Made by a program: the position numbers and the translations under genes. Shown in pieces: positions 2,437 to 22,731 of a DNA stretch of 27,486 nucleotides; within the stretch, counting starts at the first letter, position 1; each line of letters starts with the position of its first letter. The stretch comes from a virus (Duplodnaviria > Heunggongvirae > Uroviricota > Caudoviricetes). The stretch lies in IMG/VR virus record IMGVR_UViG_2909282993_000005; one strand, given 5' to 3'. The notes beneath the pieces were generated by a model. It was not told the DNA's origin, ran no database searches, and worked only from the letters and a program-made list of their open reading frames with translations.

Positions 2437-2901
2437 GTTAAATTAATTATAAAAAAATATATTATAATTCCATCTTCGCATTAAATTTTAACCTTTAATC
2501 TCCACACGGAACAAGTTGCATAGGTGACTATATTAAGAAAACTTATAACCACCAAAAAGATTTGCTTTGCAAGCAAAAACAGTGACCATTGACTCTAAGA
2601 AAATTCCGATCTATTGTTAGTGTCATCAAAGTTACTTAACAGTATTCCGAAATGAAAATACAAAGCAAGCTAATTGTCTTATTAAACATTATCATTGCAT
2701 TTATATTATTTGAGCTTTTAGCTCAAAAATTTGGTTTGAGTACATTATTTTAAAGCAAGATAAACAATATCGGGCACTCTAGTTTTTATAATTAACAATT
2801 AAACGCCCATAAAATGTTATTTACTTTTCTTCGCTATTGTCATATCTTAATATAGTGGCTTACGCCACTCTACTTTCATCATATTTTGTACGTTTATGTA
2901 C

Positions 2902-2932
2902 TCGCCATGAAGCTCTTTCATGGCGATTTTTT
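2902..2932 (+). terminator. Intrinsic terminator-like hairpin (10-bp perfect stem tcgccatgaa/ttcatggcga, 5-nt loop, T6 tail)
   Basis: Read directly: stem 2902-2911 and 2917-2926, then tttttt at 2927-2932. The upstream transcript is unknown. Confidence 0.4.
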
Positions 2933-3018
2933 ATTCTTAATCCAAGAACATACTCCCTACCTATAGAAAAATCACTTTTTGAACAAAAGAATAACGTATT
3001 TAGGTAATCATTACGAAT

Positions 3019-3600
3019 TTACCCTATAGGTGCTACTGGCCATTCAATATCCGGTGCAGTTGTTGTATTAACACGGTTCAGCAACACCCGATACTTCTTC
3101 CAGGCTTCCAGCAACGAGATTTCTTCCTCCGTTGCAATTTCCAGATCTGCAGCATCCTGAAGCGGCGCAATATGCTCACTGGCTACCTGCATCAGGTTGT
3201 TTTTTGTTTCTTCCGCCTCCCGGATCCGGAACAGTTTTTCTGCTTCCGTATCCTTCACCCAGGCTGTGCCGTTCCACTTCTGATATTCCCCTTCCGGCGA
3301 TAACCAGGTGACATTTTCCGGTAACGAGCCAAGTTCAGAAATAAATAACGCGTCGCCGGAAGCCACGTCATAGACGGTTTTTCCCCGATGATCTTCAACG
3401 AGATGCCACGATGCCTCATCACTGTTGAAAACAGCCACAAAGCCAGCCGGAATATCTGGCGGTGCAATATCGGTACTGTTTGCTGGCAGACCTGTATGAG
3501 GCGGAATATATGCGTCACCTTCACCAATAAATTCATTAGTTCCGGCCAGCAGATTATAAATTTTTATGGTCCGTGGTTGTTCACTCATTCTGAATGCCAT
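3019..3600 (-). CDS. Tail fiber assembly protein (Tfa family)
   Basis: 193-aa ORF starting [54 protein letters not shown] and ending [13 protein letters not shown]...IEWP, characteristic of lambdoid TfaQ/TfaR/TfaE proteins. Its start overlaps the stf stop. Confidence 0.85.
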
Positions 3601-4193
3601 TATGCAAGCCTCACAATATAGTTAAATGCGATGTTTTTGACGGTGTTTTCCGCGTTACCAGCAGCGTTAACGGTGATGGTGTGTCCATGTGAACCAATCG
3701 CAACGGAGTGCGTATGAGCACCAATACCGACAGTATGCGCGTGTGCACCTGCAGATGCTGCTGTGCCGGACAGTGAGTGGCTATGATTACCATCTGTACT
3801 GGTATTAGCTAACCACCCCGTAGACATACCTACTGAGCCTTGTACACCCCAGGTATTTTGACCTGAGCTTGTATAACCATATTGATAAGTATCTTTAAAA
3901 ACACTGGGGTTAAATCGACGGCCATCTCTATGGCTGTGATTACCAGCTGCATTCGTGCTGCCACTTAAACTATGGGTATGCGCACCAGTGTTATTCGTGG
4001 ATTTAGTGCCGTAATCAAACGACGATGTGGTTTTCGTCCCCAAATCCGTACTGGATGCGCTGGCGCTGTGGGTATGCGATTTAATGCCGTCCTGTTCCTG
4101 AGACAATACGGCCCGACCACTGGTAGGTTTGCCCTTAATCGTCCAGCCACGCATAACCCTGCGTCTGTCAGCACAGTAAAACCCGGTGTGCAT
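3600..4193 (-). pseudogene. Side tail fiber protein, C-terminal fragment only (5' part and all upstream morphogenesis genes deleted)
   Basis: 197-aa ORF with Gly/Ser/Thr/His-rich repeats ([46 protein letters not shown]) typical of the C-terminus of Stf proteins. The first ~20 residues look unrelated, and no tail genes lie upstream. Confidence 0.7.
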
Positions 4194-6214: not shown

Positions 6215-6610
6215 CTAACCTCGCATGTCAAAGCCAGATTTCTGAAAATCTCTGTAGACTTCCGGATTGTTGAAGGCCGGAAATTTGGCTTTATGAGCTG
6301 CGGACTTTATCGCTTCGCAATAGGCTTTATCACCGTTACTGGTAGATATTTTTAACGCCGTGCCATCCTGAGAGAATTCCATATGCAACCTGCATTTTTT
6401 CCCTTTCCAGTTATGCGGCTCATCAAGTTTGGCATTAATTGCAGCTCTGATTCCCCGCGCTTGCGCCCCCCATTCATCCTGATCATCCCAGCGTCCTGAA
6501 CTGCAACTACCTGTAGCAGTAGTTTTGTGGCAATCTGAAGGGTGTAAAGGTGTGCATCCCGCAACAAAACCGACCCAAAAAGTCAACATAACGATTTTCT
6601 TTAATCCCAC
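6215..6610 (-). CDS. Lipoprotein with TolA domain-III-like C-terminus (moron)
   Basis: 131-aa ORF with signal peptide and lipobox (FVAGC). The C-terminus KKCRLHMEFSQDGTALKISTSNGDKAYCEAIKSAAHKAKFPAFNNPEVYRDFQ resembles the TolA C-terminal domain (GKTCTLRIKLAPDGMLLDIKPEGGDPALCQAALAAAKLAKIPKPPSQAVYEVF, from recall). Confidence 0.7.
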   Translation of the reverse strand: MGLKKIVMLTFWVGFVAGCTPLHPSDCHKTTATGSCSSGRWDDQDEWGAQARGIRAAINAKLDEPHNWKGKKCRLHMEFSQDGTALKISTSNGDKAYCEAIKSAAHKAKFPAFNNPEVYRDFQKSGFDMRG

Positions 6611-6760
6611 TTCTTGCTCCTCAATCCATTAAAATCTCAGCAATAGTAGTTGTTACGTCCGCCACTGGCTCAGAGCTGACTATCCGCTAAATTTAGCTCA
6701 GTGCCGTAGCTGTGTCAGAACAAACCTAAGCCGAAACCGTTTATTACAAAACAATAAATA

Positions 6761-7189
6761 TCAGGGTTTAAAATCCAGCACCCCATTTTGAAATACTTTA
6801 TATACTTCCGGCGAAGGGGGGGCAGGTATATCAGCATTCTTTATCGCATTCATCGCTTCACGACATAAATCGAGGTCTCCACTTTCTCTTTTAACCTCCA
6901 GTAGAAGGCCATTCGGGGCCATATGCATTCTCAGTGTACACTCTTTTCCTGAATACTTACTCGCATCCCCGAACTGTTTTTCGATGGCGCTCTTGATTTG
7001 ATGGGCATACAGACGGATATTCTCACTAACATCAGAAGTACGTTCAGATGAACTCACATACTGTGTCTCTATTGCTTTATCGGAGTAATATGATGTACGG
7101 TCATGATAATTTGTCGATACAGCATCAGTGCACCCGATAATAATCCCACTAATAATCAACGTAAGAATTGATGCGCTACGAAAACCCAT
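6761..7189 (-). CDS. Lipoprotein with TolA domain-III-like C-terminus (paralog of 6215..6610)
   Basis: 142-aa ORF with lipobox (IIIGC). The C-terminus GKECTLRMHMAPNGLLLEVKRESGDLDLCREAMNAIKNADIPAPPSPEVYKVFQNGVLDFKP closely parallels the TolA C-terminal domain and the neighbouring ORF. Confidence 0.7.
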   Translation of the reverse strand: MGFRSASILTLIISGIIIGCTDAVSTNYHDRTSYYSDKAIETQYVSSSERTSDVSENIRLYAHQIKSAIEKQFGDASKYSGKECTLRMHMAPNGLLLEVKRESGDLDLCREAMNAIKNADIPAPPSPEVYKVFQNGVLDFKP

Positions 7190-7306
7190 TTTTCCTCACA
7201 TATGTCATATAGTAAAGGATTATATATACCGTTGTTTTGGACGCTCAAACAGCGAATCAGATCAAATAAAACGCACATTTGTTAACATTTACACAAAGTC
7301 TGCGTG

Positions 7307-7327
7307 GGATATTCTGAAAGAATATCC
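7307..7327. promoter_or_regulatory. 21-bp perfect palindrome ggatattc-tgaaa-gaatatcc (candidate dimeric regulator binding site)
   Basis: Read directly: 8-bp inverted arms around a 5-nt spacer, about 120 bp upstream of the lipoprotein gene start at 7189. No T-run, so not a terminator. Confidence 0.3.
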
Positions 7328-7722
7328 ATAATGTGGAGAGAATCTATTGAAGTGCATGGTGCCGGGTGCCTCCCGGTGAATTCAGTACCAGCACCTGAAT
7401 CCGCGATTATCCCATATACCTACTCGCTGATTGCCCCTCCGCACAGGGGGATTCACCATGCCAGTTTCTTTTAACAAACTCCCCGCAAACCAGAGAACAG
7501 TCAACCGCCTGAATTGTGAAGTATTTAAAAATTTCTCCCGCTAACTGATACCCGGCTAACAGTCTGGCGTTTTCTTTTTCAGCAACGGGAAAGCAACAAC
7601 CACCACACCCGCCACCAGCACACCGTCAGCCAGCACTGACATTATCCGGCTGCTGCAATGCCATTCACAAAAACAGTAAGCAATCACTTTTTACCGTAAC
7701 AGGTGATAATCCAGATATGTAT

Positions 7723-8186: not shown

Positions 8187-8263
8187 TGGCGCGCTGTACT
8201 GGATTCGAACCAGTAACCGATTGCTTAGAAGGCAATTGCTCTGTCCGGCTGAGCTAACAACGC
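8187..8263 (-). tRNA. tRNA-Arg (anticodon UCU)
   Basis: 77-nt cloverleaf GCGTTGTTAGCTCAGCCGGACAGAGCAATTGCCTTCTAAGCAATCGGTTACTGGTTCGAATCCAGTACAGCGCGCCA. 7-bp acceptor stem, T-loop GGTTCGAATCC, anticodon loop CTTCTAA (U33, anticodon TCT, A37), encoded CCA. Confidence 0.85.
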
Positions 8264-8367
8264 TGAATACCGATAATGGACCGCTATCGGGGACCCGCCC
8301 CCCCCCGCACCAACAACCCTGTTATCGTGTCGTCTGCTCTTCCTGATAAGCTCATGGCGGTTTGTGA

Positions 8368-8443
8368 TGGTGGCCCTTGCTGGATTTGAACCAGCGACCT
8401 GGCGATTATGAGTCGCTCGCTCTCACCACTGAGCTAAAGGGCC
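8368..8443 (-). tRNA. tRNA with CAU anticodon, most similar to tRNA-Ile2 (lysidine type, ileX/ileZ-like); elongator Met not fully excluded
   Basis: 76-nt cloverleaf GGCCCTTTAGCTCAGTGGTGAGAGCGAGCGACTCATAATCGCCAGGTCGCTGGTTCAAATCCAGCAAGGGCCACCA. Anticodon loop CTCATAA; strong resemblance to E. coli ileX from recall. Confidence 0.8.
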
Positions 8444-11288: not shown

Positions 11289-11444
11289 TTACTCCTCAGG
11301 TTCGTAAACTGTGAAGACAGCGACCTCCGTCTGGCCGGTTCGGATTCGTAACTCGCAGAGGTCTTTCCTCGTTACCAGTGCCGTCACTATGACGGTTAAA
11401 CAGATGACGATCAGGGCGATTAACATCGCCTTTTGCTGCTTCAT
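11289..11444 (-). CDS. hokD: Hok/Gef-family type I toxin (HokD/RelF-like, 51 aa); in-frame upstream extension to 11501 corresponds to a Mok-like reading frame
   Basis: MKQQKAMLIALIVICLTVIVTALVTRKDLCELRIRTGQTEVAVFTVYEPEE, near-identical to HokD/RelF from recall: single TM helix plus conserved C-terminal periplasmic tail. Confidence 0.9.
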   Translation of the reverse strand: MKQQKAMLIALIVICLTVIVTALVTRKDLCELRIRTGQTEVAVFTVYEPEE

Positions 11445-12164
11445 AGCCTGCTTCTCCTTGCCTTTCGGCACGTAAGAGGCTAACCTAGATTTGCCGTTCA
11501 TAGATTGAGCCTCAGATTAATGTTAAGCGTCTTGCAGGACGCGTAATGTTAACTGGGGCTTTTCTCTATCTGCCTTTGGTGTTCATGCCTGAGGCAGATA
11601 GCCTCAAGCACCCGCAGCAATTCTACTTAACTCCCGTCACCTCGCCAATATAAAATCAATCAGAAAGGCGATCCATAAGAACAACAGCAAGACAATAAAT
11701 TGCCATTACAGCCGCAATAGCTAGCGCACATTTGAGAACCAGCACGACAACCTCCTGTATTGGACGTACACCAGTTCTGATAAATATGAGGCTGTCTCAT
11801 CATTGATTCAATATAACTATTGGGTATAGTTTCTGTGATTTTGTTCTGTAGAAATGGAACACAACAACCAGTCACCACCAGCACTTCTTTAAATACGCCA
11901 AGTCCGACGCAAGCTAACCTTCTAGTCCGCTTTGAGCGAGGAGCGGACCAAACCCGGCCAACTGACTCTTAAAGGGGCCGCAGGAATTTTTCGTCTGAAC
12001 TTTCGAAGCTCCTCTCCCTGAAGACAGAAAACTTCTGTGTGCTGTGGGAATATTGAATCTTTGCATTAGATATAAATAATTTTATCCCGCCTGAAGTTTA
12101 CATTATTTTATTTATCTGTTTTTCTAAATCAGACTGCACTCCTTACTTAAATCAGGAGCCAGTC

Positions 12165-13364
12165 ATGCCATTTGTTATTTATGTGTTTACTATCAGTGCC
12201 TTTGCGCTCGGACTCGCGGAATTTGTCCCCATTGGGCTGACAGACGTTATGGCTCAGGGGTTGTGTGTGGGTGTGGAGCAGACCGGGGCAGCGGTTACAA
12301 CCTATGCACTGGGGGCAACGTTCGCGGCACCCGTACTGTCTGCGCTGACAGCAAGCTGGAGCCGGAAAAATGTAATGCTTACAACTGCCGTTGTGTTTAC
12401 TGCCGGTAGTCTGGCGGCCGCGTTTGCAGCCACATTACCTCAGCTCCTGTTAGCGCGGTTCATTGCTGGTCTGGGACACGGCCTGTTTCTGGCTGCGGCA
12501 TCCAGTACCGCAGCTCGTCTTGCTGGACCGGGTAAAGCAGGCAGAGCGGTGGCTGTGGTATTTGGTGGCTTTACTCTGGCGATGGCAATCGGCGTACCGC
12601 TGAGTACATGGTTGGGGGGGGTGGTCTCATGGCGTCCAGTTCTCGGCGCTATTGCCGCTTTTGGCGCGTTCGGATTCCTTGGACTGTTGTTCGGTATGAA
12701 AGATCCCGTACGCAGCGTGCCCGGTGAACATAGTGACTCAGCAATGCAGAATATCGGCATGCTGTTTAACCGTAAGTTGCTGGCCGGCGCGCTGGTTACG
12801 GTGCTGGCGTATGCAGGCTCGTTTACGGCTTACACCTTTATCGCACCTATTCTGACGCAGGTGACAGGGGTTACCGGAGCAAAGGTGAGTCTGTTTATGC
12901 TGGTTTACGGTATTACAGCTGCGGTAGGTAATATTCTTGGTGGGAAACTTACCGACAGCATGGGGGTTAATCGTGCCAATATACTCATCATTAGCGGCAT
13001 TGTTGTTGTCGTGCTTGGTATGTGGCTGCTGTCATCCTCACCGGTGAGCATGGGCATTCTGGTTGCGCTGCTGGGTATGGTGACATTTGCCGCAGTGCCG
13101 GCACTGCAGGCCCGTCTGATTGGTGTCGCTGAGCAACATGCTCCTCATGCGCATGGTGTTGCTGCCGGCCTGAATATTGCGGGCTTCAACTCAGGTATAG
13201 CGCTGGGATCAGTACTGGGCAGCATTACTATAAGCCACGCCGGTATCGTGTATACCGGTATCAGCGGTGCGATTGTTTCTCTGCTCGGCCTGCTGTTGCT
13301 GCTTGCACAAATCCGTCGCAGCCACAGTCGTAAATTTCAACAGGTTAAAATCGTAGGCCAGTAA
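12165..13364 (+). CDS. MFS transporter (12-TM, DHA1-like efflux/sugar-type family); GC-rich gene
   Basis: 399-aa highly hydrophobic ORF with MFS loop motifs; AGGAG RBS. Nucleotide composition is visibly more GC-rich than the flanking phage DNA. Confidence 0.8.
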   Translation: MPFVIYVFTISAFALGLAEFVPIGLTDVMAQGLCVGVEQTGAAVTTYALGATFAAPVLSALTASWSRKNVMLTTAVVFTAGSLAAAFAATLPQLLLARFIAGLGHGLFLAAASSTAARLAGPGKAGRAVAVVFGGFTLAMAIGVPLSTWLGGVVSWRPVLGAIAAFGAFGFLGLLFGMKDPVRSVPGEHSDSAMQNIGMLFNRKLLAGALVTVLAYAGSFTAYTFIAPILTQVTGVTGAKVSLFMLVYGITAAVGNILGGKLTDSMGVNRANILIISGIVVVVLGMWLLSSSPVSMGILVALLGMVTFAAVPALQARLIGVAEQHAPHAHGVAAGLNIAGFNSGIALGSVLGSITISHAGIVYTGISGAIVSLLGLLLLLAQIRRSHSRKFQQVKIVGQ

Positions 13365-13375
13365 AGGGAGGTTAT

Positions 13376-14068
13376 ATGCTTACCCGTGAAAATATGCTTA
13401 ATGGCACATTTGTCAGGGTGCATGAAGCGCTGCTCCCGGCGAATATGCTCTGGGACGCTGAAAAAATACGCGCATCAATGAACTCTACTCTGGAGGAGCG
13501 CCCGACGGGTGCTCCTTTCTGGATATTTGCCTACGGGTCATTGATGTGGAATCCCGTGCTGGCAATTGAAGAAATGCAACGGGCCCGTCTGAAAGGATGG
13601 CAGCGCAGTTTCTGCATTCGTTTGATATCCGGACGAGCGACTCCTGATGTCCCCGGCAGGATGTTATCGCTCGACGAAGGTGGAATTACCGAAGGTATTG
13701 CGTTCAGACTGCCGGAATCGACTCTTATTAATGAGCTGGAAATTGTCTGGACGCGCGAGATGATAACCGGTCTTTACCGTCCGGTCTGGGCAGACGTTTC
13801 GCTAGGAAACGGTGAGGAAATTCAGGCGCTGGCTTTCGTATCAGACAGACTGCATCCGCATTATGAACAGGACAATCTTACAGCGACCGTAGCGTTGAGC
13901 ATCGCATCTGCCCGTGGAGACATTGGCACGAATGCAGATTATGTATGGAAACTGCAGGCCACTCTGGGTGCGTTGGGAATACGGGATGATTACGTGAGTG
14001 AACTGGCCCTTGCTCTGCATGAGGCTCCCTGTAACGATAAACTTCATCAGCGAGGCGCTTCACTATGA
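13376..14068 (+). CDS. ChaC-family gamma-glutamylcyclotransferase-like protein
   Basis: 230-aa product with FAYGSLMWNP and GRMLSLDEGG...WTREMITG motifs matching the ChaC/GGCT fold signature (YGSL catalytic region). Confidence 0.8.
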   Translation: MLTRENMLNGTFVRVHEALLPANMLWDAEKIRASMNSTLEERPTGAPFWIFAYGSLMWNPVLAIEEMQRARLKGWQRSFCIRLISGRATPDVPGRMLSLDEGGITEGIAFRLPESTLINELEIVWTREMITGLYRPVWADVSLGNGEEIQALAFVSDRLHPHYEQDNLTATVALSIASARGDIGTNADYVWKLQATLGALGIRDDYVSELALALHEAPCNDKLHQRGASL

Positions 14069-14946
14069 GCCATCTGAGCCATCTGCGAACGTTTCTTGAG
14101 GCCTATCGCTCTGGCTCCTTTTCAAAGGCGGCAGAACTACTGGGCATCACTCAGCCCGCGGCGTCACAGCATATCCAGTCTCTTGAGACTCTGGTTGGTA
14201 AGCGTCTGTTTATCAGGCAGGCCAGAGGCGTGACGGCAACCGAAGCTGCGGATGAGCTTGCCCGCTCAGTTTCACCCTTCATTGATGGTCTGGAAGAAAA
14301 GCTGTCCTCTTTCCGGTCAGGCTCTGTACACGGGGGAACAATTAATCTGGCAGGACCGCCAGATTTTATTCATTCCCGGCTTGGGACAGTAATGGCTCCA
14401 CTAATGAAGGAGGGGTATCGCCTACGCTTTCATACCGGCAATAAGCAACGTATTTATTCCCTTTTGCATGACGGGAGCGCCGATCTCGCTGTTACCGCAT
14501 CTATGCCTGATGACCGTCTGTACGGCTATGCACATCTACTGACTGAACGCATGCTCCTTGTTCATGCTCCCGCCATGTCAGAGATCATCGGATCAGAACC
14601 TGGTGCTGAAACGCTTGCCTCATTACCGCTGATTGCTTATGACGAAGAGTTGCCACTGATTAGAGCGCTCTGGGCCTCCATGTTTCAGAGAGCCCCTGAG
14701 ATGCAGGCTACATTCACCATTCCGGATTTACGTATTATCCGCGACTTGGTCTGTGACGGCCACGGGTGGACAGTGCTGCCGGATTATCACTGTGACAATG
14801 ACCTGAAAAGTGGTCGCCTGATTTCAGTGACACCTGCAGACCTCGCTCCGACTAATCATCTTTATCTGGTCTGGAACAAAAGGACGGCTAATAACAGCCG
14901 AACCGCCTATGTTCGGGATTACATTCTTAAAACGTTTCCGCGTTGA
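14065..14946 (+). CDS. LysR-family transcriptional regulator
   Basis: 293-aa product with an N-terminal wHTH typical of LysR (LRTFLEAYRSGSFSKAAELLGITQPAASQHIQSLE) and a C-terminal substrate-binding domain. 4-bp overlap with the ChaC-like gene. Confidence 0.85.
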   Translation: MSHLSHLRTFLEAYRSGSFSKAAELLGITQPAASQHIQSLETLVGKRLFIRQARGVTATEAADELARSVSPFIDGLEEKLSSFRSGSVHGGTINLAGPPDFIHSRLGTVMAPLMKEGYRLRFHTGNKQRIYSLLHDGSADLAVTASMPDDRLYGYAHLLTERMLLVHAPAMSEIIGSEPGAETLASLPLIAYDEELPLIRALWASMFQRAPEMQATFTIPDLRIIRDLVCDGHGWTVLPDYHCDNDLKSGRLISVTPADLAPTNHLYLVWNKRTANNSRTAYVRDYILKTFPR

Positions 14947-14990
14947 TGTTTGAAACGGATGATTGGCGATGTGTATCATAAGTTACGTAT

Positions 14991-15020
14991 GTCCGCTTCT
15001 GGCACAAAGCAGACGCCCAC
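14991..15020. repeat. 30-bp imperfect direct repeat, copy A (gtccgcttctggcacaaagcagacgcccac)
   Basis: Matches copy B at 18664..18693 in 24/30 positions, with a 14-bp core GGCACAAAGCrGAC. Lies between the LysR stop and the convergent membrane-protein gene. Confidence 0.5.
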
Positions 15021-15076
15021 TCTCACGCGAATGCTTTGCCCTTGACTTGCCAACAACCGTATCGCTTGCTCCGCAA

Positions 15077-16369
15077 CTATGGTTTTTTATTAGAACCTTC
15101 GCCACTAAATAAATTATAATAAATTGATTTTATTAGATATCTGTCAGAATCTATATGGTCAGCACGAGTAGCATGCTCTAATGTTTCAAATGCTAGGGTT
15201 TGTGCGGCTTCAGCAAAAATTCCAGGCCAACCCTTACTCAGCATCGACAGTCCTTTAAGTACCCTTATCTGAATTTCCCTCATACTGGCACCATCGCGCG
15301 CAACAGGTGAGAAAAAGTCTTCAAGTAGATCGTTATTCTGAAGTGGTGCAACATGTACAGAAGGATATTTCACTTCTATTTCATCAGATTTATTCTGCGC
15401 GTAAGCGGAAAGTATACGTACACCTCTGCCAATGACATCAATGGCGGTTCCAGGATCGTTCACTGCGGGGGAAAGGGCTCGGCAGGCTATTTCGGCCATG
15501 ACGCTAAGACAAAATCGGGGGTCCTGAGCAAATGAACGTACATCCGAGACAATAATCGTCTCAAGTAAATCGGTGCTGATTGATGACTCCTGGCCCTGAC
15601 TCAGGTACAAAACTGGCGTGGACGGATGTATGAAACTGCCCGGCTGCGCCACGAGGTATACATGACGGGGATCATTGGTCAGCAGCTTGCTGAGTTTCAC
15701 CATATCAACATATTCAACATAGCCAATCTTTTTCGGATAAACTGCAACCGTTCCTTTCGGCTGTTCATTGTTCTCAAGCCATGGATATCCGCCGAGACAG
15801 GGATTTCTTGCTCTCGCAATAAATGTTTCGATGGCCGCCTGTTCTACTTTTGCCGTTGTCTCACCAACCCTCCCCAGAGAGGTCAAATGCTGTATCCAGC
15901 GAAGCAATGTGATGAGGATTAAGGCAATGACAACCAGTGTTACAATGAATAAAATGACTCTCCCCCTTTCTCCATAAGCTCCCATATTGAGGGCAATAAT
16001 CCCTACCAGACTGAAGAGAAAAGAACCGATGAAGGTGGCCAGTACATTTTGTGTGGTGACGTCTTCAACAACTAAACGAGTAGCTCTGGGAGTCACATTA
16101 GTAGTGGCTGAACCGTAGGCTGTGACCATGATGCTCAGCGAAAATGTGGTCACTGCCAGCATACTCGATGCCAGTATGTTCAGAATGTTATCGACTGCTT
16201 CCGCACCAACCTTCACGGAAACCGACTCAGGTATCATTGATTTAAAAAGAATTGATAAAAGGGCCGTTATTATTGCGACAATTGCGAATAACGTTGCCCT
16301 GAACCATAGTTTTTTAAATGTCTGCTTCAGCATCCATTTCCAGCGTGAAATCATTCTGCATTCCCTCAT
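15077..16369 (-). CDS. Membrane protein with N-terminal multi-TM region and C-terminal soluble domain (tentatively DUF2254-like); exact start uncertain (alternative Met codons at residues 6 and 13)
   Basis: 430-aa ORF with four predicted hydrophobic helices in the first ~160 residues and a long hydrophilic C-terminus. Family name is tentative recall. Confidence 0.55.
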   Translation of the reverse strand: MRECRMISRWKWMLKQTFKKLWFRATLFAIVAIITALLSILFKSMIPESVSVKVGAEAVDNILNILASSMLAVTTFSLSIMVTAYGSATTNVTPRATRLVVEDVTTQNVLATFIGSFLFSLVGIIALNMGAYGERGRVILFIVTLVVIALILITLLRWIQHLTSLGRVGETTAKVEQAAIETFIARARNPCLGGYPWLENNEQPKGTVAVYPKKIGYVEYVDMVKLSKLLTNDPRHVYLVAQPGSFIHPSTPVLYLSQGQESSISTDLLETIIVSDVRSFAQDPRFCLSVMAEIACRALSPAVNDPGTAIDVIGRGVRILSAYAQNKSDEIEVKYPSVHVAPLQNNDLLEDFFSPVARDGASMREIQIRVLKGLSMLSKGWPGIFAEAAQTLAFETLEHATRADHIDSDRYLIKSIYYNLFSGEGSNKKP

Positions 16370-16417
16370 ATTGCAGCCGGGATAAATAAATGCCGCCTCT
16401 GTGGCGGCATGTTGCTG

Positions 16418-18421
16418 TTAACGAACCAGATGCAGGAAGTGCAGGTGTTTTTCGTACTGGTCCAGTATGTCATTAATCAGCTGTTCCTGATTCCAGCCCA
16501 TTACATCATAATTTTGGCCGCCCTCTTTGAGATAGACTTCAGCGCGATAATATCGATGTTGTTCACTCTGCTGCTCATCATTATCCAGCGCAGCGAGCGC
16601 GAAGGTCGGTGAGTTATACCCGCGAAGCCTCACTTCATATATATAATTCAGCTCGTTGCCCAAATCGACTTCAAGGCGAATACGATCCTCGGCGGCGTCA
16701 CTGATGTGGCTTATCGTTCCCTGCTTGTTAAGTTCCTCCTGAACCAGCGTCATGGCGGGTTGGATAATGTCGTCCATAAAACGTTTCACAAGAGAGCGCT
16801 TCGGCAAATACGCGATATTGCGTAACCTTCTCTGCCAGGGAATTGGGTTACGTGCAGCCGTAGGAGCAATAGTCGCCATGCTAAGGCTTTCACGCTTGGT
16901 CAAATCCCGACGCAGGGCTTTTAACAGTCCGTATATGGATATTAATAAGATAACTGAGAAGGGCAATGCACTCGCTATCGTTACGGTTTGCAACGCACTC
17001 AGCCCCCCTGCGATCAGCAGGGCAATAGCAACAACGCCCATGAGCGATGCCCAGAAAATTCGCTGCCAGACGGGCGTGTTTGCCACCCCACCTGATGCCA
17101 GAGTATCCACAACCATTGCCCCCGAATCAGCAGACGTTACAAAGAAGACGATGACCATCGCCATTGCAATGAATGACAGCACGGAAGAGAACGGGAAATG
17201 CTCCAGGAAATTAAACAGGGCAAGCGCAACATCCTGCTGAACGGTATTGGCGAGGTCAGTGGCGCCCTGGTTCATGATGAGATAGATGGCGCTGTTTCCA
17301 AACACCGTCATCCACATGAGCGTAAAGCCGGCGGGAACAAACAACACGCCAGTCACGAACTCACGAATTGTCCTGCCGCGGGAAACGCGTGCAATGAACA
17401 TACCTACAAACGGCGACCATGAAAGCCACCATCCCCAGTATAATAATGTCCAGCCCCCCAGCCAGTTGCTCGACTTGGGTTCATACGCGTAAAGGTTGAA
17501 CGTTTTACTCACCAGTTCCGACAGATAACCACCCGTATTTTCCACAAATGACTTCAGCAGAAGCACAGTGGGACCCAGGCACAAGACCAGCGCCAGGAGC
17601 AACACCGCCAGGCCCAGATTAAGCTCAGACAGGATGCGTATTCCCTTGTCCAGGCCGGACACCACCGAAATCGTCGCTAACCCCGTGATGACCACGATCA
17701 AAATGACCTGTACCGTTTCATTGATGGGCACGCCGAAAAGATGGTTCAAACCGGCATTCACCTGCAATACACCGTAACCCAGTGATGTTGCAACGCCAAA
17801 GACAGTGCCTATCACGGCGAAGATATCAACCGCGTGGCCTATAGGCCCGTAAATGCGATCGCCGATAATGGGATAGAGCGCAGAACGCAGCGTTAAAGGC
17901 AGACCGTGACGGTAACTGAAAAAGGCCAGAATCAGCGCCACGATGGCATAAATTGCCCATGCGTGCAGACCCCAGTGGAAGAACGTCAGGCGCATGGCTT
18001 CCTTCGCTGCCGCAACGGTCTCTGGAGTGCCGACAGGTGGCGAAAGATAATGCATCACAGGTTCGGCAACGCCAAAGAACATCAGGCCGATCCCCATCCC
18101 TGCCGAAAAAAGCATCGCGAACCAGGAGTGGTAGCTGAAATCAGGCTGCGCATGGTCTGGGCCCAGCTTTATATCACCGTAACGTGAGAGTCCAAGGAAC
18201 GTGACGCTCAGTAAAATCAGGGCCACAGCAAGTATGTAGAACCAGCTGGCATTCGTGAAGATTTGTTGCTGAAGTAGTTTAAAATTTTTGTCGGCGACAT
18301 CCGGGAATACGGCGGCAAAGGCGACAAGAAGGAAAATTAGCAAAGCAGATGTAAAGAATACCGCTTTGTTAATCTGGCTTGTAGACTTCTTTGGGGTTGT
18401 ATCATTTTCACTCATAATCAT
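16418..18421 (-). CDS. BCCT-family transporter (BetT-like choline/betaine/carnitine transporter)
   Basis: 667-aa product with BCCT signature regions (WTLLYWGWWLSWSPFVGMFIARVSRGRTIREF) and the C-terminal DILDQYEKHLHFLHL tail typical of BetT. Confidence 0.85.
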   Translation of the reverse strand: MIMSENDTTPKKSTSQINKAVFFTSALLIFLLVAFAAVFPDVADKNFKLLQQQIFTNASWFYILAVALILLSVTFLGLSRYGDIKLGPDHAQPDFSYHSWFAMLFSAGMGIGLMFFGVAEPVMHYLSPPVGTPETVAAAKEAMRLTFFHWGLHAWAIYAIVALILAFFSYRHGLPLTLRSALYPIIGDRIYGPIGHAVDIFAVIGTVFGVATSLGYGVLQVNAGLNHLFGVPINETVQVILIVVITGLATISVVSGLDKGIRILSELNLGLAVLLLALVLCLGPTVLLLKSFVENTGGYLSELVSKTFNLYAYEPKSSNWLGGWTLLYWGWWLSWSPFVGMFIARVSRGRTIREFVTGVLFVPAGFTLMWMTVFGNSAIYLIMNQGATDLANTVQQDVALALFNFLEHFPFSSVLSFIAMAMVIVFFVTSADSGAMVVDTLASGGVANTPVWQRIFWASLMGVVAIALLIAGGLSALQTVTIASALPFSVILLISIYGLLKALRRDLTKRESLSMATIAPTAARNPIPWQRRLRNIAYLPKRSLVKRFMDDIIQPAMTLVQEELNKQGTISHISDAAEDRIRLEVDLGNELNYIYEVRLRGYNSPTFALAALDNDEQQSEQHRYYRAEVYLKEGGQNYDVMGWNQEQLINDILDQYEKHLHFLHLVR

Positions 18422-18663
18422 TTATTCCATTAATTAAATCCGCACTGGATAGAAGGTACTACCTCTCACAGAGTAGCAAAGTTCAACTGGCTATGCGGGG
18501 TTAATCGGAATGCATGGTGGAATGAGTGCCGATACAAATCATCCTATATTCTAAGGAGTTTTAAGTTACTCAGCCTGCCAATTACTGGGGCATTTAATTT
18601 GTATGATCTGTATCAAAGCTGGGATATAAGTTAAGTGAAGTATATTAGGCACGAATTACCAGC

Positions 18664-18693
18664 GTCTGCTCTTGGCACAAAGCGGACAACCAC
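18664..18693. repeat. 30-bp imperfect direct repeat, copy B (gtctgctcttggcacaaagcggacaaccac)
   Basis: See copy A. Lies between the BetT-like start and the first phage replication-module ORF. Confidence 0.5.
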
Positions 18694-18755
18694 GCTAGCT
18701 CTACCCTGTGCCACAAAATGTCAATTTGCATCTGAACTAATGCACTTTAATCTCG

Positions 18756-19178
18756 TCACTTCAATAAATACCGAACATCCCCCTGATAAAACGACAATAT
18801 GCGCTGCATAACTTCGCTCTTCCGGCACTCGCGACAGATTATGTTTAGGCGACTGTCGTAGCGACGTATTTCTCCGTCAGGTAATGACCAGATAAGGTCC
18901 GGATCAACCACAACCGGTTTCTTCAGCTTTGCCCTCGATAATTTTTTGCGGGCATTTTGCCAGTCTTTACGAGCCTGTTCAGACGGGAATAACCCGTAGC
19001 CAGAATTGTATACATCGCCACTGGCAACCAGCTCTCTGGCCAGAACGCTCATCAGATATCTTGTTGCCCCAGTTTTAGCTTCCAGTTGTCGTAACGTCTC
19101 GCGCCCACTCTGGCGTACGAGTTCAAGAACCTGCCCTTTAATTTTTTCCCGCTCTTCTTGTGTAAAAACTTTTGCCAC
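18756..19178 (-). CDS. Hypothetical phage protein downstream of the replication initiator (P-position of lambda, but too short to be a helicase loader)
   Basis: 140-aa ORF with a strong AGGAGG RBS. C-terminal CRECRK motif; no recognisable domain. Confidence 0.5.
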   Translation of the reverse strand: MAKVFTQEEREKIKGQVLELVRQSGRETLRQLEAKTGATRYLMSVLARELVASGDVYNSGYGLFPSEQARKDWQNARKKLSRAKLKKPVVVDPDLIWSLPDGEIRRYDSRLNIICRECRKSEVMQRILSFYQGDVRYLLK

Positions 19179-19218: not shown

Positions 19219-20289
19219 TTACCCCCTGAAGCCCGGCGGAATTTCGTTATCCGGTTCAGAAATATGATTCACACAACGCTGGTTGTTCGTGCCGCTTACC
19301 GGGAGCAACCAGGGGTTCTCAAAATTCCGGTCCGGTCCAAAAAACGTCGTCGCTCGCTGAACAAATTCCGTTCCCGTTTTCCCGGTAGCCGCCAAGTATC
19401 TTGCGTAACGCCTCACGCCATCCAGCATGGCCTCTGGTGGCACCCCCTCGCGTAATCTGGCCTTCCAGGCACTGAAAGCGGATTTCTTCGGGTTTGCCCC
19501 AGCACGCAACGGGTACTCCCGCCAGACCTGTTCGAACACATCCGGATAATCCACTCGTCCCACAGACTGCCCGGTGTTTTCCGGGACTACCCGATCGGCT
19601 TCCCGCTGAATGGCGGAATCGGCTTCAGGCTGCTGCAGTTGGTGTGATTGCTCCGCCCTTGCGGTCATCACCTGCTGCACAGCGCCCGAATCGGCTTTCA
19701 GCGCATACGCTGAATCGGCTTCCGGTGTCGTGCCTGCTGGCTGACCAAGATTGACGGTCTGAACATCCCCTGCCTGGTTCGTGGCGTTTTTTACGCCATG
19801 GACCATAGTGTTTTGATCTTCTTGATCTGTATCTTTATCTGTATCTTTATCTGTCGTGACTCGTCGTGACATGTGCGTGACATTTCGTGACGCGCCGTGA
19901 CAATCGCCATTTTGTTCCCGCTTTCTTTCCCTCTCTCGCTGCGCCCTCTTGCGCTCTGCAGGAGATTTTGCGGTTTGCGAAATATTGCCGTTGTCCTCTT
20001 TAAGCACCTGGCGTTTTTCCCATCCAGTGATTAAATCACCATCAAGTACCCGCCCCTGCATCGTCTGCAAAATTGAATCAATTACCTCTTCTGTCACGTC
20101 GAGCGCACTTGCCAAATCTTCTGTCGTGACATCAATGTGACCTCGCGTGACATTTCGTGACGCGCTCACCAGGAGGTGGATATACACTGCCATCACTGTT
20201 GCAATTGGCTGCCCTGACACCCTGGCAATTGTTCGCCACTTAGGGTCATTTGGCATGTCATGCCATAATCTGAGCCAGGCGTTAGCCAT
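19219..20289 (-). CDS. Putative replication initiation protein (lambda O-like organisation: iteron arrays inside the coding sequence)
   Basis: 356-aa product from the ATG at 20289 (RBS AGAGGTGA); the ORF track starts two codons earlier at GTG. Sits at the O position after the cro/cII-like genes. Contains two arrays of CGTGAC repeats at 10-11-bp spacing, mirrored in the protein as repeated SRNVT(R/H)..VTT motifs. Confidence 0.55.
   Translation of the reverse strand: MANAWLRLWHDMPNDPKWRTIARVSGQPIATVMAVYIHLLVSASRNVTRGHIDVTTEDLASALDVTEEVIDSILQTMQGRVLDGDLITGWEKRQVLKEDNGNISQTAKSPAERKRAQRERERKREQNGDCHGASRNVTHMSRRVTTDKDTDKDTDQEDQNTMVHGVKNATNQAGDVQTVNLGQPAGTTPEADSAYALKADSGAVQQVMTARAEQSHQLQQPEADSAIQREADRVVPENTGQSVGRVDYPDVFEQVWREYPLRAGANPKKSAFSAWKARLREGVPPEAMLDGVRRYARYLAATGKTGTEFVQRATTFFGPDRNFENPWLLPVSGTNNQRCVNHISEPDNEIPPGFRG
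19855..19901. repeat. Iteron array 1: five CGTGAC motifs spaced 10-11 bp (starts 19855, 19865, 19876, 19886, 19896), preceded by two GATC sites and a tandem 12-bp repeat tatctttatctg
   Basis: Read directly from the sequence. Helical-turn periodicity and location inside the rep ORF resemble lambdoid ori organisation. Confidence 0.6.
20093..20161. repeat. Iteron array 2: CGTGAC/TGTGAC motifs at 20125, 20136, 20146, 20156 plus an inverted copy GTCACG at 20093
   Basis: Read directly; same motif and spacing as array 1, about 225 bp away within the same ORF. Confidence 0.55.
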
Positions 20290-20360
20290 ACTCACCTCTT
20301 TTGATACCGAATCTTTTTACTCACAAATTGCCGGAAGTGATCCGGTATGAATATTGCGAG

Positions 20361-22678: not shown

Positions 22679-22731
22679 TTTCTGGTGACGTTTGGCGGTA
22701 TCAGTTTTACTCCGTGACTGCTCTGCCGCCC
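22679..22731 (+). ncRNA. dicF: DicF small RNA (cell-division inhibitor sRNA targeting ftsZ mRNA)
   Basis: 53-nt sequence TTTCTGGTGACGTTTGGCGGTATCAGTTTTACTCCGTGACTGCTCTGCCGCCC matches DicF from recall, followed by a T-run (22732-22736) and preceded by a structured ~300-nt leader. Confidence 0.8.

Follow-up and report, generated by a model that had tools for sequence, protein, structure and literature searches.

The DNA analyzed here, a stretch of 27,486 nucleotides from IMG/VR record IMGVR_UViG_2909282993_000005 (hereafter, the window), is 100% identical to Escherichia coli O169:H41 strain 2014EL-1345-2 and represents an E. coli Qin-like lambdoid prophage, with DicF, a repressor/cro-like pair, an O-like gene with iterons, DUF977, hokD/sok, genes for DUF968, RusA and a Q-type antiterminator, and two tRNAs. 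Our subject is a 24-bp palindromic element, three copies of which split the interval between the DUF977 gene and hokD, so that this interval holds two adjacent cassettes of accessory genes rather than one. The components of the interval, together with a likely relict of the element elsewhere in the window, are the following:

6657-6680, minus strand: probable degenerate fourth copy of the element, GTCAGCT CTGAGCCA GT GGCGGAC
11289-11924, minus strand: hokD-side backbone, with hokD (11289-11444), sok and ~300 nt of conserved sequence up to element copy 3
11925-11948, plus strand: element copy 3, type 2, GTCCGCT TTGAGCGA GG AGCGGAC, with a perfect 7-bp inverted repeat, oriented inward as seen from hokD
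11949-14990, plus strand: second cassette, with genes for an MFS transporter (12165-13364), a ChaC/gamma-glutamylcyclotransferase (13376-14068) and a LysR regulator (14065-14946)
14991-15014, minus strand: element copy 1, type 1, GTCTGCT TTGTGCCA GA AGCGGAC as read on the minus strand
15015-18663, minus strand: BCCT cassette, with genes for a DUF2254 membrane protein (15077-16369) and a BCCT transporter (16418-18421)
18664-18687, minus strand: element copy 2, type 1, GTCCGCT TTGTGCCA AG AGCAGAC as read on the minus strand
18688-19178, minus strand: DUF977-side backbone, with the DUF977 gene (18756-19178) and a conserved 68-nt spacer that ends at the element

Each element is a palindromic core, GTCYGCT-N10-AGCRGAC, in which 7-bp inverted arms surround a 10-nt center that comes in two loop types, TTGTGCCAnn (type 1) and TTGAGCGAnn (type 2). 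A preliminary description of this region rested on two of the copies, the 30-mers at 14991-15020 and 18664-18693, which were said to match at 24 of 30 positions; the match holds in the sequence, in a diagonal scan (offset 3673) and in a repeat-family analysis, where 14991-15023 and 18664-18696 pair at 79%. Gene content likewise bears out that the bracket 14991-18693 encloses the DUF2254 and BCCT genes only, with no recombinase inside. The picture of two repeats around a single module is, however, incomplete: the palindromic nature of the repeats, the third copy, the degenerate fourth one and the entire second cassette had been overlooked. Together with its flank, copy 3 (11912-11948) matches 18664-18700 in the inverted orientation at 28 of 37 positions. 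The degenerate sequence probably, though not certainly, belongs to the same family; it separates two small tandem open reading frames (ORFs; 6761-7189 and 6215-6610, minus strand), each with a TolA C-terminal domain, and this region (6215-7189) may be a further site of cassettes downstream of Q and the tRNAs.

Taken alone, the direct repeat pair is only moderately unlikely by chance and is not compelling in isolation: among 8 Markov-simulated windows, 1 contained a direct 30-mer pair matching at 24 or more positions (mean 0.125). The core GGCACAAAGCRGAC, allowing at most 2 mismatches, occurs 3 times in the window, against 0.26 expected. We regard the repeats as real because of family-level evidence, that is, conserved copies elsewhere, and not because of the pair itself. 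Fortuitous similarity of two intergenic 30-mers, for which the simulations leave some room, is already refuted by other genomes, in which homologous positions hold hundreds of conserved copies, and can be virtually discounted.

The contents of the DUF977-hokD interval in complete E. coli genomes are highly varied and include genes for QueH, a KwaB-like protein, SMEK with a methyltransferase, sce7726 with a beta-family protein, an acetyltransferase, or an alpha/beta hydrolase; the K-12 variant consists of relBE-flxA. When the window is compared with five other E. coli prophage variants, homology is lost at 11943-11948, inside copy 3, and regained at 18665-18672, inside copy 2. In 80 IMG/VR loci recovered with the DUF977 protein, a type 1 element lies exactly 69 nt past the DUF977 stop codon, an inverted type 2 element abuts the conserved region that precedes hok, and loci with multiple cassettes carry extra elements between the cassettes. 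The prevailing arrangement is a cassette between two inward-facing elements, one of each type (84 of the 120 inter-element segments), with direct arrays of type 1 elements accounting for 25 segments. Between neighboring cassettes there is often a doublet, one type 2 and one type 1 element joined by 4-18 nt, and the elements sit at cassette ends, not between the genes of multi-gene cassettes.

Comparison of 12 unrelated cargo starts on the DUF977 backbone shows where within the element the sequences part. The outer arm and loop positions 1-8 have column identities of 90% or more, the dinucleotide 'nn' of ~60% and the inner arm of 70-90%; beyond it, identity is at background level. Furthermore, one and the same cassette occurs on two or three backbone haplotypes, distinguished by differences only 9-25 nt away from the element, and 'nn' always goes with the cassette. 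What remains with the backbone, or with the preceding cassette, is the outer arm and loop bases 1-8; the cargo takes along loop bases 9 and 10 and the inner arm.

In K-12-type Qin, flxA is itself bracketed by a type 1 and a type 2 element (L007/L010, 1451-1474 and 2442-2465), with the type 1 element located inside the annotated ydfV ORF. Given this location, ydfV is possibly not a real gene, and the element accounts for an odd feature of the K-12 annotation, namely, an ORF that overlaps one of the elements bracketing flxA.

The second cassette of the window, between the inward-facing copy 3 (type 2) and copy 1 (type 1), displays the canonical arrangement; the BCCT cassette is bracketed by two type 1 elements in direct orientation. 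The outer half of copy 2 is that of the DUF977 backbone, and its 'AG' and inner arm are those of the BCCT cassette. Copy 1 separates the BCCT and MFS cassettes, lying between the convergent 3′ ends of the DUF2254 and LysR genes; its left arm and loop are constant with the BCCT cassette, and 'nn' and the right arm vary with the neighbor (GA, TG, GT or GG). Indeed, the BCCT cassette cluster comprises 16 copies with 4 different downstream neighbor cassettes, the joint always running through the element. The arms that belong to the BCCT cassette, AGCAGAC and GTCTGCT, both rarer variants, are mutually complementary and would restore a perfect T-A palindrome, a combination present in only 5 of 206 elements. 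This complementarity fits the insertion of a unit with one element into a resident type 1 site.

Copies of the module also occur outside phages. A 94% identical BCCT-DUF2254 pair resides in the chromosomal acuR/fec island of many E. coli strains (locus L002 3179-7529, matching window positions 14995-18524), and the homology begins at 14995, within copy 1. The island retains a diverged element, GTATGCT TTGTGCCA AA AGCAAAC, followed by the cassette-start-like GTTGCTAAT and then by acuR; it may be derived from a phage cassette array, or the reverse. On the BCCT side, the chromosomal copy examined (L002) abuts IS600, all other chromosomal matches examined end at the same point, and plasmid copies of the pair are bounded by insertion sequence (IS) elements, so that the upstream end of the unit is not recoverable from these copies. 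No source for the 139 nt between copy 2 and the chromosomal homology was found among the chromosomal and plasmid copies examined.

The element also brackets the cargo of P2-like phages at the gpG-gpFI locus, which we take to be the Z/fun locus of P2. In phage P2_4C9 (L331 3501-4991), a type 1 element is followed by genes for a NUDIX hydrolase and a HAD hydrolase and then by a type 2 element, and this unit is 99.2-99.5% identical over 1,491 bp to a unit from the lambdoid DUF977-hokD interval (six IMG/VR loci and 18 complete genomes). The alignment is bounded exactly by the outermost bases of the two elements; beyond them, the sequences are unrelated, with tail genes in the P2-like phages versus replication and hok genes in the lambdoid ones. 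The differences within the elements are few, backbone-specific and confined to the outer arm and loop (CTGTGCCA in P2-like versus TTGTGCCA in lambdoid backbones; GTCTGCT versus GTCCGCT), which narrows the crossover down to TGTGCCA at one end and to a tract of no more than 11 nt at the other; overall, the crossover interval is 7-24 nt. A complete unit has thus moved between phage families, element to element, and this transfer is the strongest evidence that mobile units end, or are exchanged, at the elements.

The elements enclose at least 36 different cassettes, many of which are anti-phage defense systems. Among their products are a cyclic oligonucleotide-based antiphage signaling system (CBASS; SMODS cyclase and SLATT effector), DarT/DarG, a Tmn/YobI-like ATPase, TIR and SIR2 proteins, several PADLOC candidate systems, NUDIX/HAD hydrolases, and MFS and BCCT transport proteins. 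Neither a recombinase nor a transposase was found among 51 ORFs from 36 cassette clusters; thus, the cassettes are non-autonomous. An IS110-family IS of ~1.5 kb interrupts type 1 elements precisely at the boundary of loop and inner arm (TTGTGCCA nn, IS, AGCGGAC) in two phage backbones (L004, at about 2600-4165; L181; L127), and this precision implies that at least one recombinase recognizes the sequence of the element.

No compensatory change was detected at any stem position of the palindrome, and the sole common stem polymorphism is anti-compensatory (C-G, 107; T-G, 54; C-A, 34; T-A, 5). The hairpins are weak (-3 to -7 kcal/mol; z-scores from 0.56 to -2.4), with copies 1 and 2 folding no better than shuffled sequences. 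The lack of compensatory change and the weak folding energies led us to reject conservation driven by an RNA or single-stranded DNA hairpin. Given, in addition, that the elements are found at the 5′ ends of genes, at the 3′ ends and between convergent genes, it is the sequence rather than the structure that is conserved, as for a protein recognition site. No promoter or terminator predictions coincide with the three window copies, and the signs of an intrinsic terminator are lacking: the elements are absent from the terminator scan, fold weakly and have no T-run. No Rfam family matched the elements, whether the window was searched at the gathering threshold or six element-rich loci at E<=1, and no description of the element was found in the searchable literature by exact sequence, repeat-encoded peptides or keywords.

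In many cassettes (L030, L048, L103, L207, L330 and others), the element continues on its inner side into a semi-conserved extension with fixed spacing, in which rTTGCTAAC is followed, after ~30 nt, by GGGAGCAGGTC, with no ORF thereafter. More precisely, rTTGCTAAC, ~17 nt and a T-rich hexamer precede GGGAGCAGGTC, an arrangement that resembles a sigma-70 promoter with its start site; GGGAGCAGGTC also resembles a third arm-like repeat (AGCAG + GTC). The extension lengthens the conserved end to ~65-74 nt in this subset of cassettes and is 79-96% identical between otherwise unrelated P2-like and lambdoid cassettes. The extension may represent either a promoter module or an enlarged terminal site.

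Two candidate binding proteins were considered and rejected. A LysR operator is incompatible with the occurrence of the element next to cargo that includes no LysR gene and with the absence of T-N11-A spacing, and DUF977 as the binding protein is at odds with P2-like phages, which carry the element and lack the DUF977 gene.

The preliminary description had allowed for the repeat being a common intergenic element unrelated to the module boundaries. Common it is: of 5,426 complete E. coli genomes, 4,032 carry type 1 (median of 1 copy, maximum of 6), and many other Proteobacteria have further copies, but it is tied to the boundaries of modules. A scan of one genome per species with GTCYGCTTTGWGCSANNAGCRGAC, for which we estimate ~1 chance match, yielded at least 120 loci, with 451 elements in the 120 loci among the matches listed. 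These come from Enterobacterales, many Hyphomicrobiales/Xanthobacteraceae, Nitrosomonadaceae, Pseudomonas, Amphritea, and single metagenome-assembled genomes (MAGs) of Bacillota and Sericytochromatia. In Alpha- and Betaproteobacteria (Hyphomicrobiales and Nitrosomonadaceae), the palindrome is a multi-copy intergenic repeat. The alphaproteobacterial arms are lengthened to 9 bp (ATGTCCGCT...AGCGGACAT) around a center of 10-11 nt with three loop types, TTGTGCCAAT, TTGGGTCAAA and TTACCCCCGAA. In Hyphomicrobiales/Xanthobacteraceae MAGs, AT-GTCCGCT-loop-AGCGGAC-AT forms arrays with a ~45-bp period (L210-L329, e.g., L237, L238, L322, L329 and L232), and the Hyphomicrobiales MAG loci contain several elements per 8 kb. 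The alphaproteobacterial arrays flank ordinary genes, often single or orphan ABC substrate-binding genes (ABC_sub_bind, PF04392). No REP-associated tyrosine transposase (RAYT; REP, repetitive extragenic palindromic sequence) or other recombinase was found among 53 element-flanked ORFs, a set that samples each genome only sparsely. That soil Alphaproteobacteria carry this palindrome as a high-copy repeat is a hint of a widely distributed recognition factor.

We consider it likely that the element is a portable recombination junction, an exchange point for accessory-gene cassettes in the hotspots of temperate coliphages, and that the BCCT module was inserted at one such junction. New DNA would be joined by a crossover inside the element; in the window, a BCCT/DUF2254 unit with its own GTCTGCT...AGCAGAC copy would have entered, through single-site (Campbell-type) insertion, the type 1 site that precedes the MFS cassette. 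The reaction would be carried out by a dedicated enzyme, site-specific or structure-specific and so far a candidate only; because the crossover interval is so short, such an enzyme seems more likely than ordinary homologous recombination of the RecA/Red type. The original suggestion of site-specific or short-homology insertion thus gains from the breakpoints inside the repeats, the four alternative neighbors of the BCCT cassette and the P2-lambdoid transfer.

Several observations weigh against the junction hypothesis. The single-copy empty site predicted for strains lacking the module, with the DUF977 backbone fused directly to the MFS cassette, was not found in 5,426 E. coli genomes; no circular intermediate was found, and no cognate enzyme was detected among the element-flanked or cassette ORFs. 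Reciprocal hybrid arms in the style of attL/attR, which the BCCT cassette fits, fail as a general rule, with matching end arms in 11 of 15 cassettes against 8.6 expected, a non-significant excess. Moreover, the elements are so short that defining a cassette edge by the point where conservation stops is partly circular, and rare microhomology events followed by selection could yield the same picture. Finally, given that the element looks like an ordinary intergenic repeat near housekeeping-type genes in Alpha- and Betaproteobacteria, its primary role could be a different one, with recombination as a by-product.

A more specific version of the junction hypothesis, which we put forward only tentatively, is that the element is the site of a new site-specific cassette-exchange system, with 7-bp inverted arms, a 7-8-nt crossover core (TGTGCCA or GAGCGA) and a putative recombinase encoded by the host or by a mobile element. 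Such a system would shuttle defense and fitness cassettes between lambdoid and P2-like phages, would also act on single-gene units in alpha- and betaproteobacterial chromosomes, and would be a phage-borne functional analogue of integrons or pdif modules. Alternatively, the elements could be passive short-homology junctions, the sole sequence common to the hotspots, at which phage Red/RecET-type or host RecA crossovers occasionally occur with no dedicated enzyme. The window encodes lambdoid recombination functions (RusA and a DUF968/HNH-like protein), exchange between co-resident prophages is plausible, and a recombinase is absent from every cassette scanned, all in line with passive exchange. 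However, the uninterrupted identity between P2-like and lambdoid sites is only ~7 nt per tract, the crossover interval is at most 24 nt even where same-backbone exchanges offer hundreds of bp of homologous flank, and both ends of the 1,491-bp unit fall at equivalent positions; furthermore, P2-like phages are not known to have Red-type functions. We therefore regard purely passive exchange as rather unlikely.

An explanation that dissociates the repeat from the arrival of modules is that it is a selfish sequence akin to REPs, REP doublets (REPINs) or miniature inverted-repeat transposable elements (MITEs), accumulating in permissive intergenic cargo DNA. The multi-copy intergenic palindromes of Hyphomicrobiales and Nitrosomonadaceae, with their tandem arrays of ~45-bp period, the REPIN-like inverted doublets with 4-18-nt linkers, and targeting by IS110-family elements, as is the case for REPs, are all in keeping with this possibility. 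It is nevertheless improbable, given the low copy number in E. coli, the location of the elements at cassette ends, their coincidence with homology breakpoints and with both limits of the transferred unit, and the failure to find a GTAG/CGTC tag or, among the ORFs sampled, a RAYT. The remaining alternative, a regulatory element (operator for a common repressor, promoter-associated site, or terminator/insulator) with only incidental involvement in recombination, draws on the promoter-like inward extension at fixed spacing in many cassettes and on the conservation of the arms without compensatory changes, as expected of an inverted repeat bound by a protein. We find it very improbable: the elements lie upstream, downstream and between convergent genes, with no promoter or terminator predicted at the window copies, no T-run and hairpins that are weak or, for copies 1 and 2, no better than shuffles, and regulation leaves both the homology breaks inside the elements and the element-to-element transfer of a unit unexplained. 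The notion that both repeats are operators for a common regulator, raised in the preliminary description, is further undermined by the association of the element with unrelated cargo in unrelated phages.

We classify the element as a variant of known cassette-junction systems, namely, PeSL (promoter-early stem-loop), pdif, attC and REP/NIME (Neisseria intergenic mosaic elements). Arbiol et al. in 2010 reportedly described PeSL cassettes of T4-type phages, in which short motifs flank small accessory units in hyperplastic regions, and proposed modular shuffling. The similarity lies in short repeats flanking accessory units and in the promoter-like stretch beside the palindrome of some cassettes, which here is predicted and confined to a subset; the differences lie in the sequence itself, in the hosts (temperate lambdoid and P2-like rather than virulent T4-like phages), in the new, inward-facing arrangement of two element types, and in the presence of our element in bacterial chromosomes of other classes. 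Like the pdif (XerC/XerD) modules of Acinetobacter plasmids, the cassettes combine alternating inverted short sites with modules that lack their own recombinase and recur in different replicons, but the geometry, 7-bp arms around a 10-nt center, is not that of the 28-bp 11-6-11 site. Compared by eye with the dif, cer and psi consensus sequences, the element bears no resemblance to their XerC/XerD arms.

With integron attC sites, the element shares promoter-less or self-contained cargo between imperfect palindromes and a crossover inside the site, part of which travels with the cassette; the direct-repeat arrangement around the BCCT module, in particular, resembles single-site cassette insertion. 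Unlike attC, however, which is conserved mainly in structure, our element is conserved in sequence and lacks RYYYAAC/GTTRRRY cores, and most cassettes lie between inverted sites (the 84 segments noted above) instead of sharing one orientation. Neither an IntI integrase nor attI lies nearby, and the DUF977-hokD interval contains no integrase, be it that of the window or those of related loci. REP/REPIN sequences and Neisseria dRS3/NIME are likewise 20-40-bp extragenic palindromes that are multi-copy in some genomes, form inverted doublets, are targeted by IS110-family elements and flank variable segments. The element differs from REPs in the lack of a detected RAYT among the 53 element-flanked and 51 cassette ORFs, the low E. 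coli copy number and the near-identity of its sequence across classes of Proteobacteria, which is unusual for REPs. Like REPs, our element is a short imperfect palindrome, and all of its copies are intergenic. Where REPs have, on one side, a conserved GTAG or CGTC tag (Di Nocera et al. 2013, PMC3733652), the element has AT...AT flanks in Alphaproteobacteria and variable flanks in phages. As for transposons and MITEs, inverted ends are present and reach ~65-74 nt in some cassettes; the junctions show no target duplication, and the cassette ORFs scanned include no transposase.

With respect to P2-like phages, a 2004 study by Nilsson et al., by its title, concerns site-specific recombination at P2 moron loci and may pre-empt part of our findings. 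The link to lambdoid hotspots and to non-enteric bacteria appears to be additional to prior work on P2. The gpG-gpFI locus is one of the sites at which cargo is bracketed by the element. Variable cargo hotspots of P2-like phages are treated by Rousset et al. 2022 (PMC9122126), who cite Nilsson et al. 2004 for the variable P2 loci, propose cos-proximal recombination for P2 and P4 and make no mention of palindromes, hairpins or inverted repeats.

The 24-bp element could be an exchange point through which anti-phage defense systems are rapidly shuffled among prophage hotspots. It delimits the cassettes of both the gpG-gpFI hotspot of P2-like phages and a lambdoid hotspot and marks the exact ends of a 99%-identical unit common to the two. 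Thus, the repeats offer a concrete handle on how cassettes move in two unrelated families of temperate coliphages, and the element provides a simple sequence signature for locating cargo and defense cassettes.

The early rightward-type operon of the prophage runs on the minus strand in the direction from DUF977 to hokD and Q. Rfam matches in the window include the following:

7300-7490: STnc100
8190-8443: two tRNAs, annotated in RefSeq as Ile and Arg, downstream of the antiterminator
11439-11613: sok antitoxin RNA, adjoining hokD
22680-22731: DicF RNA

Two further kinds of repeats are present. Clusters of GTGAC repeats at 19863-19901 and 20123-20161, within the O-like replication gene (19219-20295, minus strand), are probably origin iterons. 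Three diverged copies of a stretch of ~75-100 nt are located at 1590-1692, 2330-2429 and 3018-3136, the third of which overlaps an Rfam IS009 match at 3059-3257.

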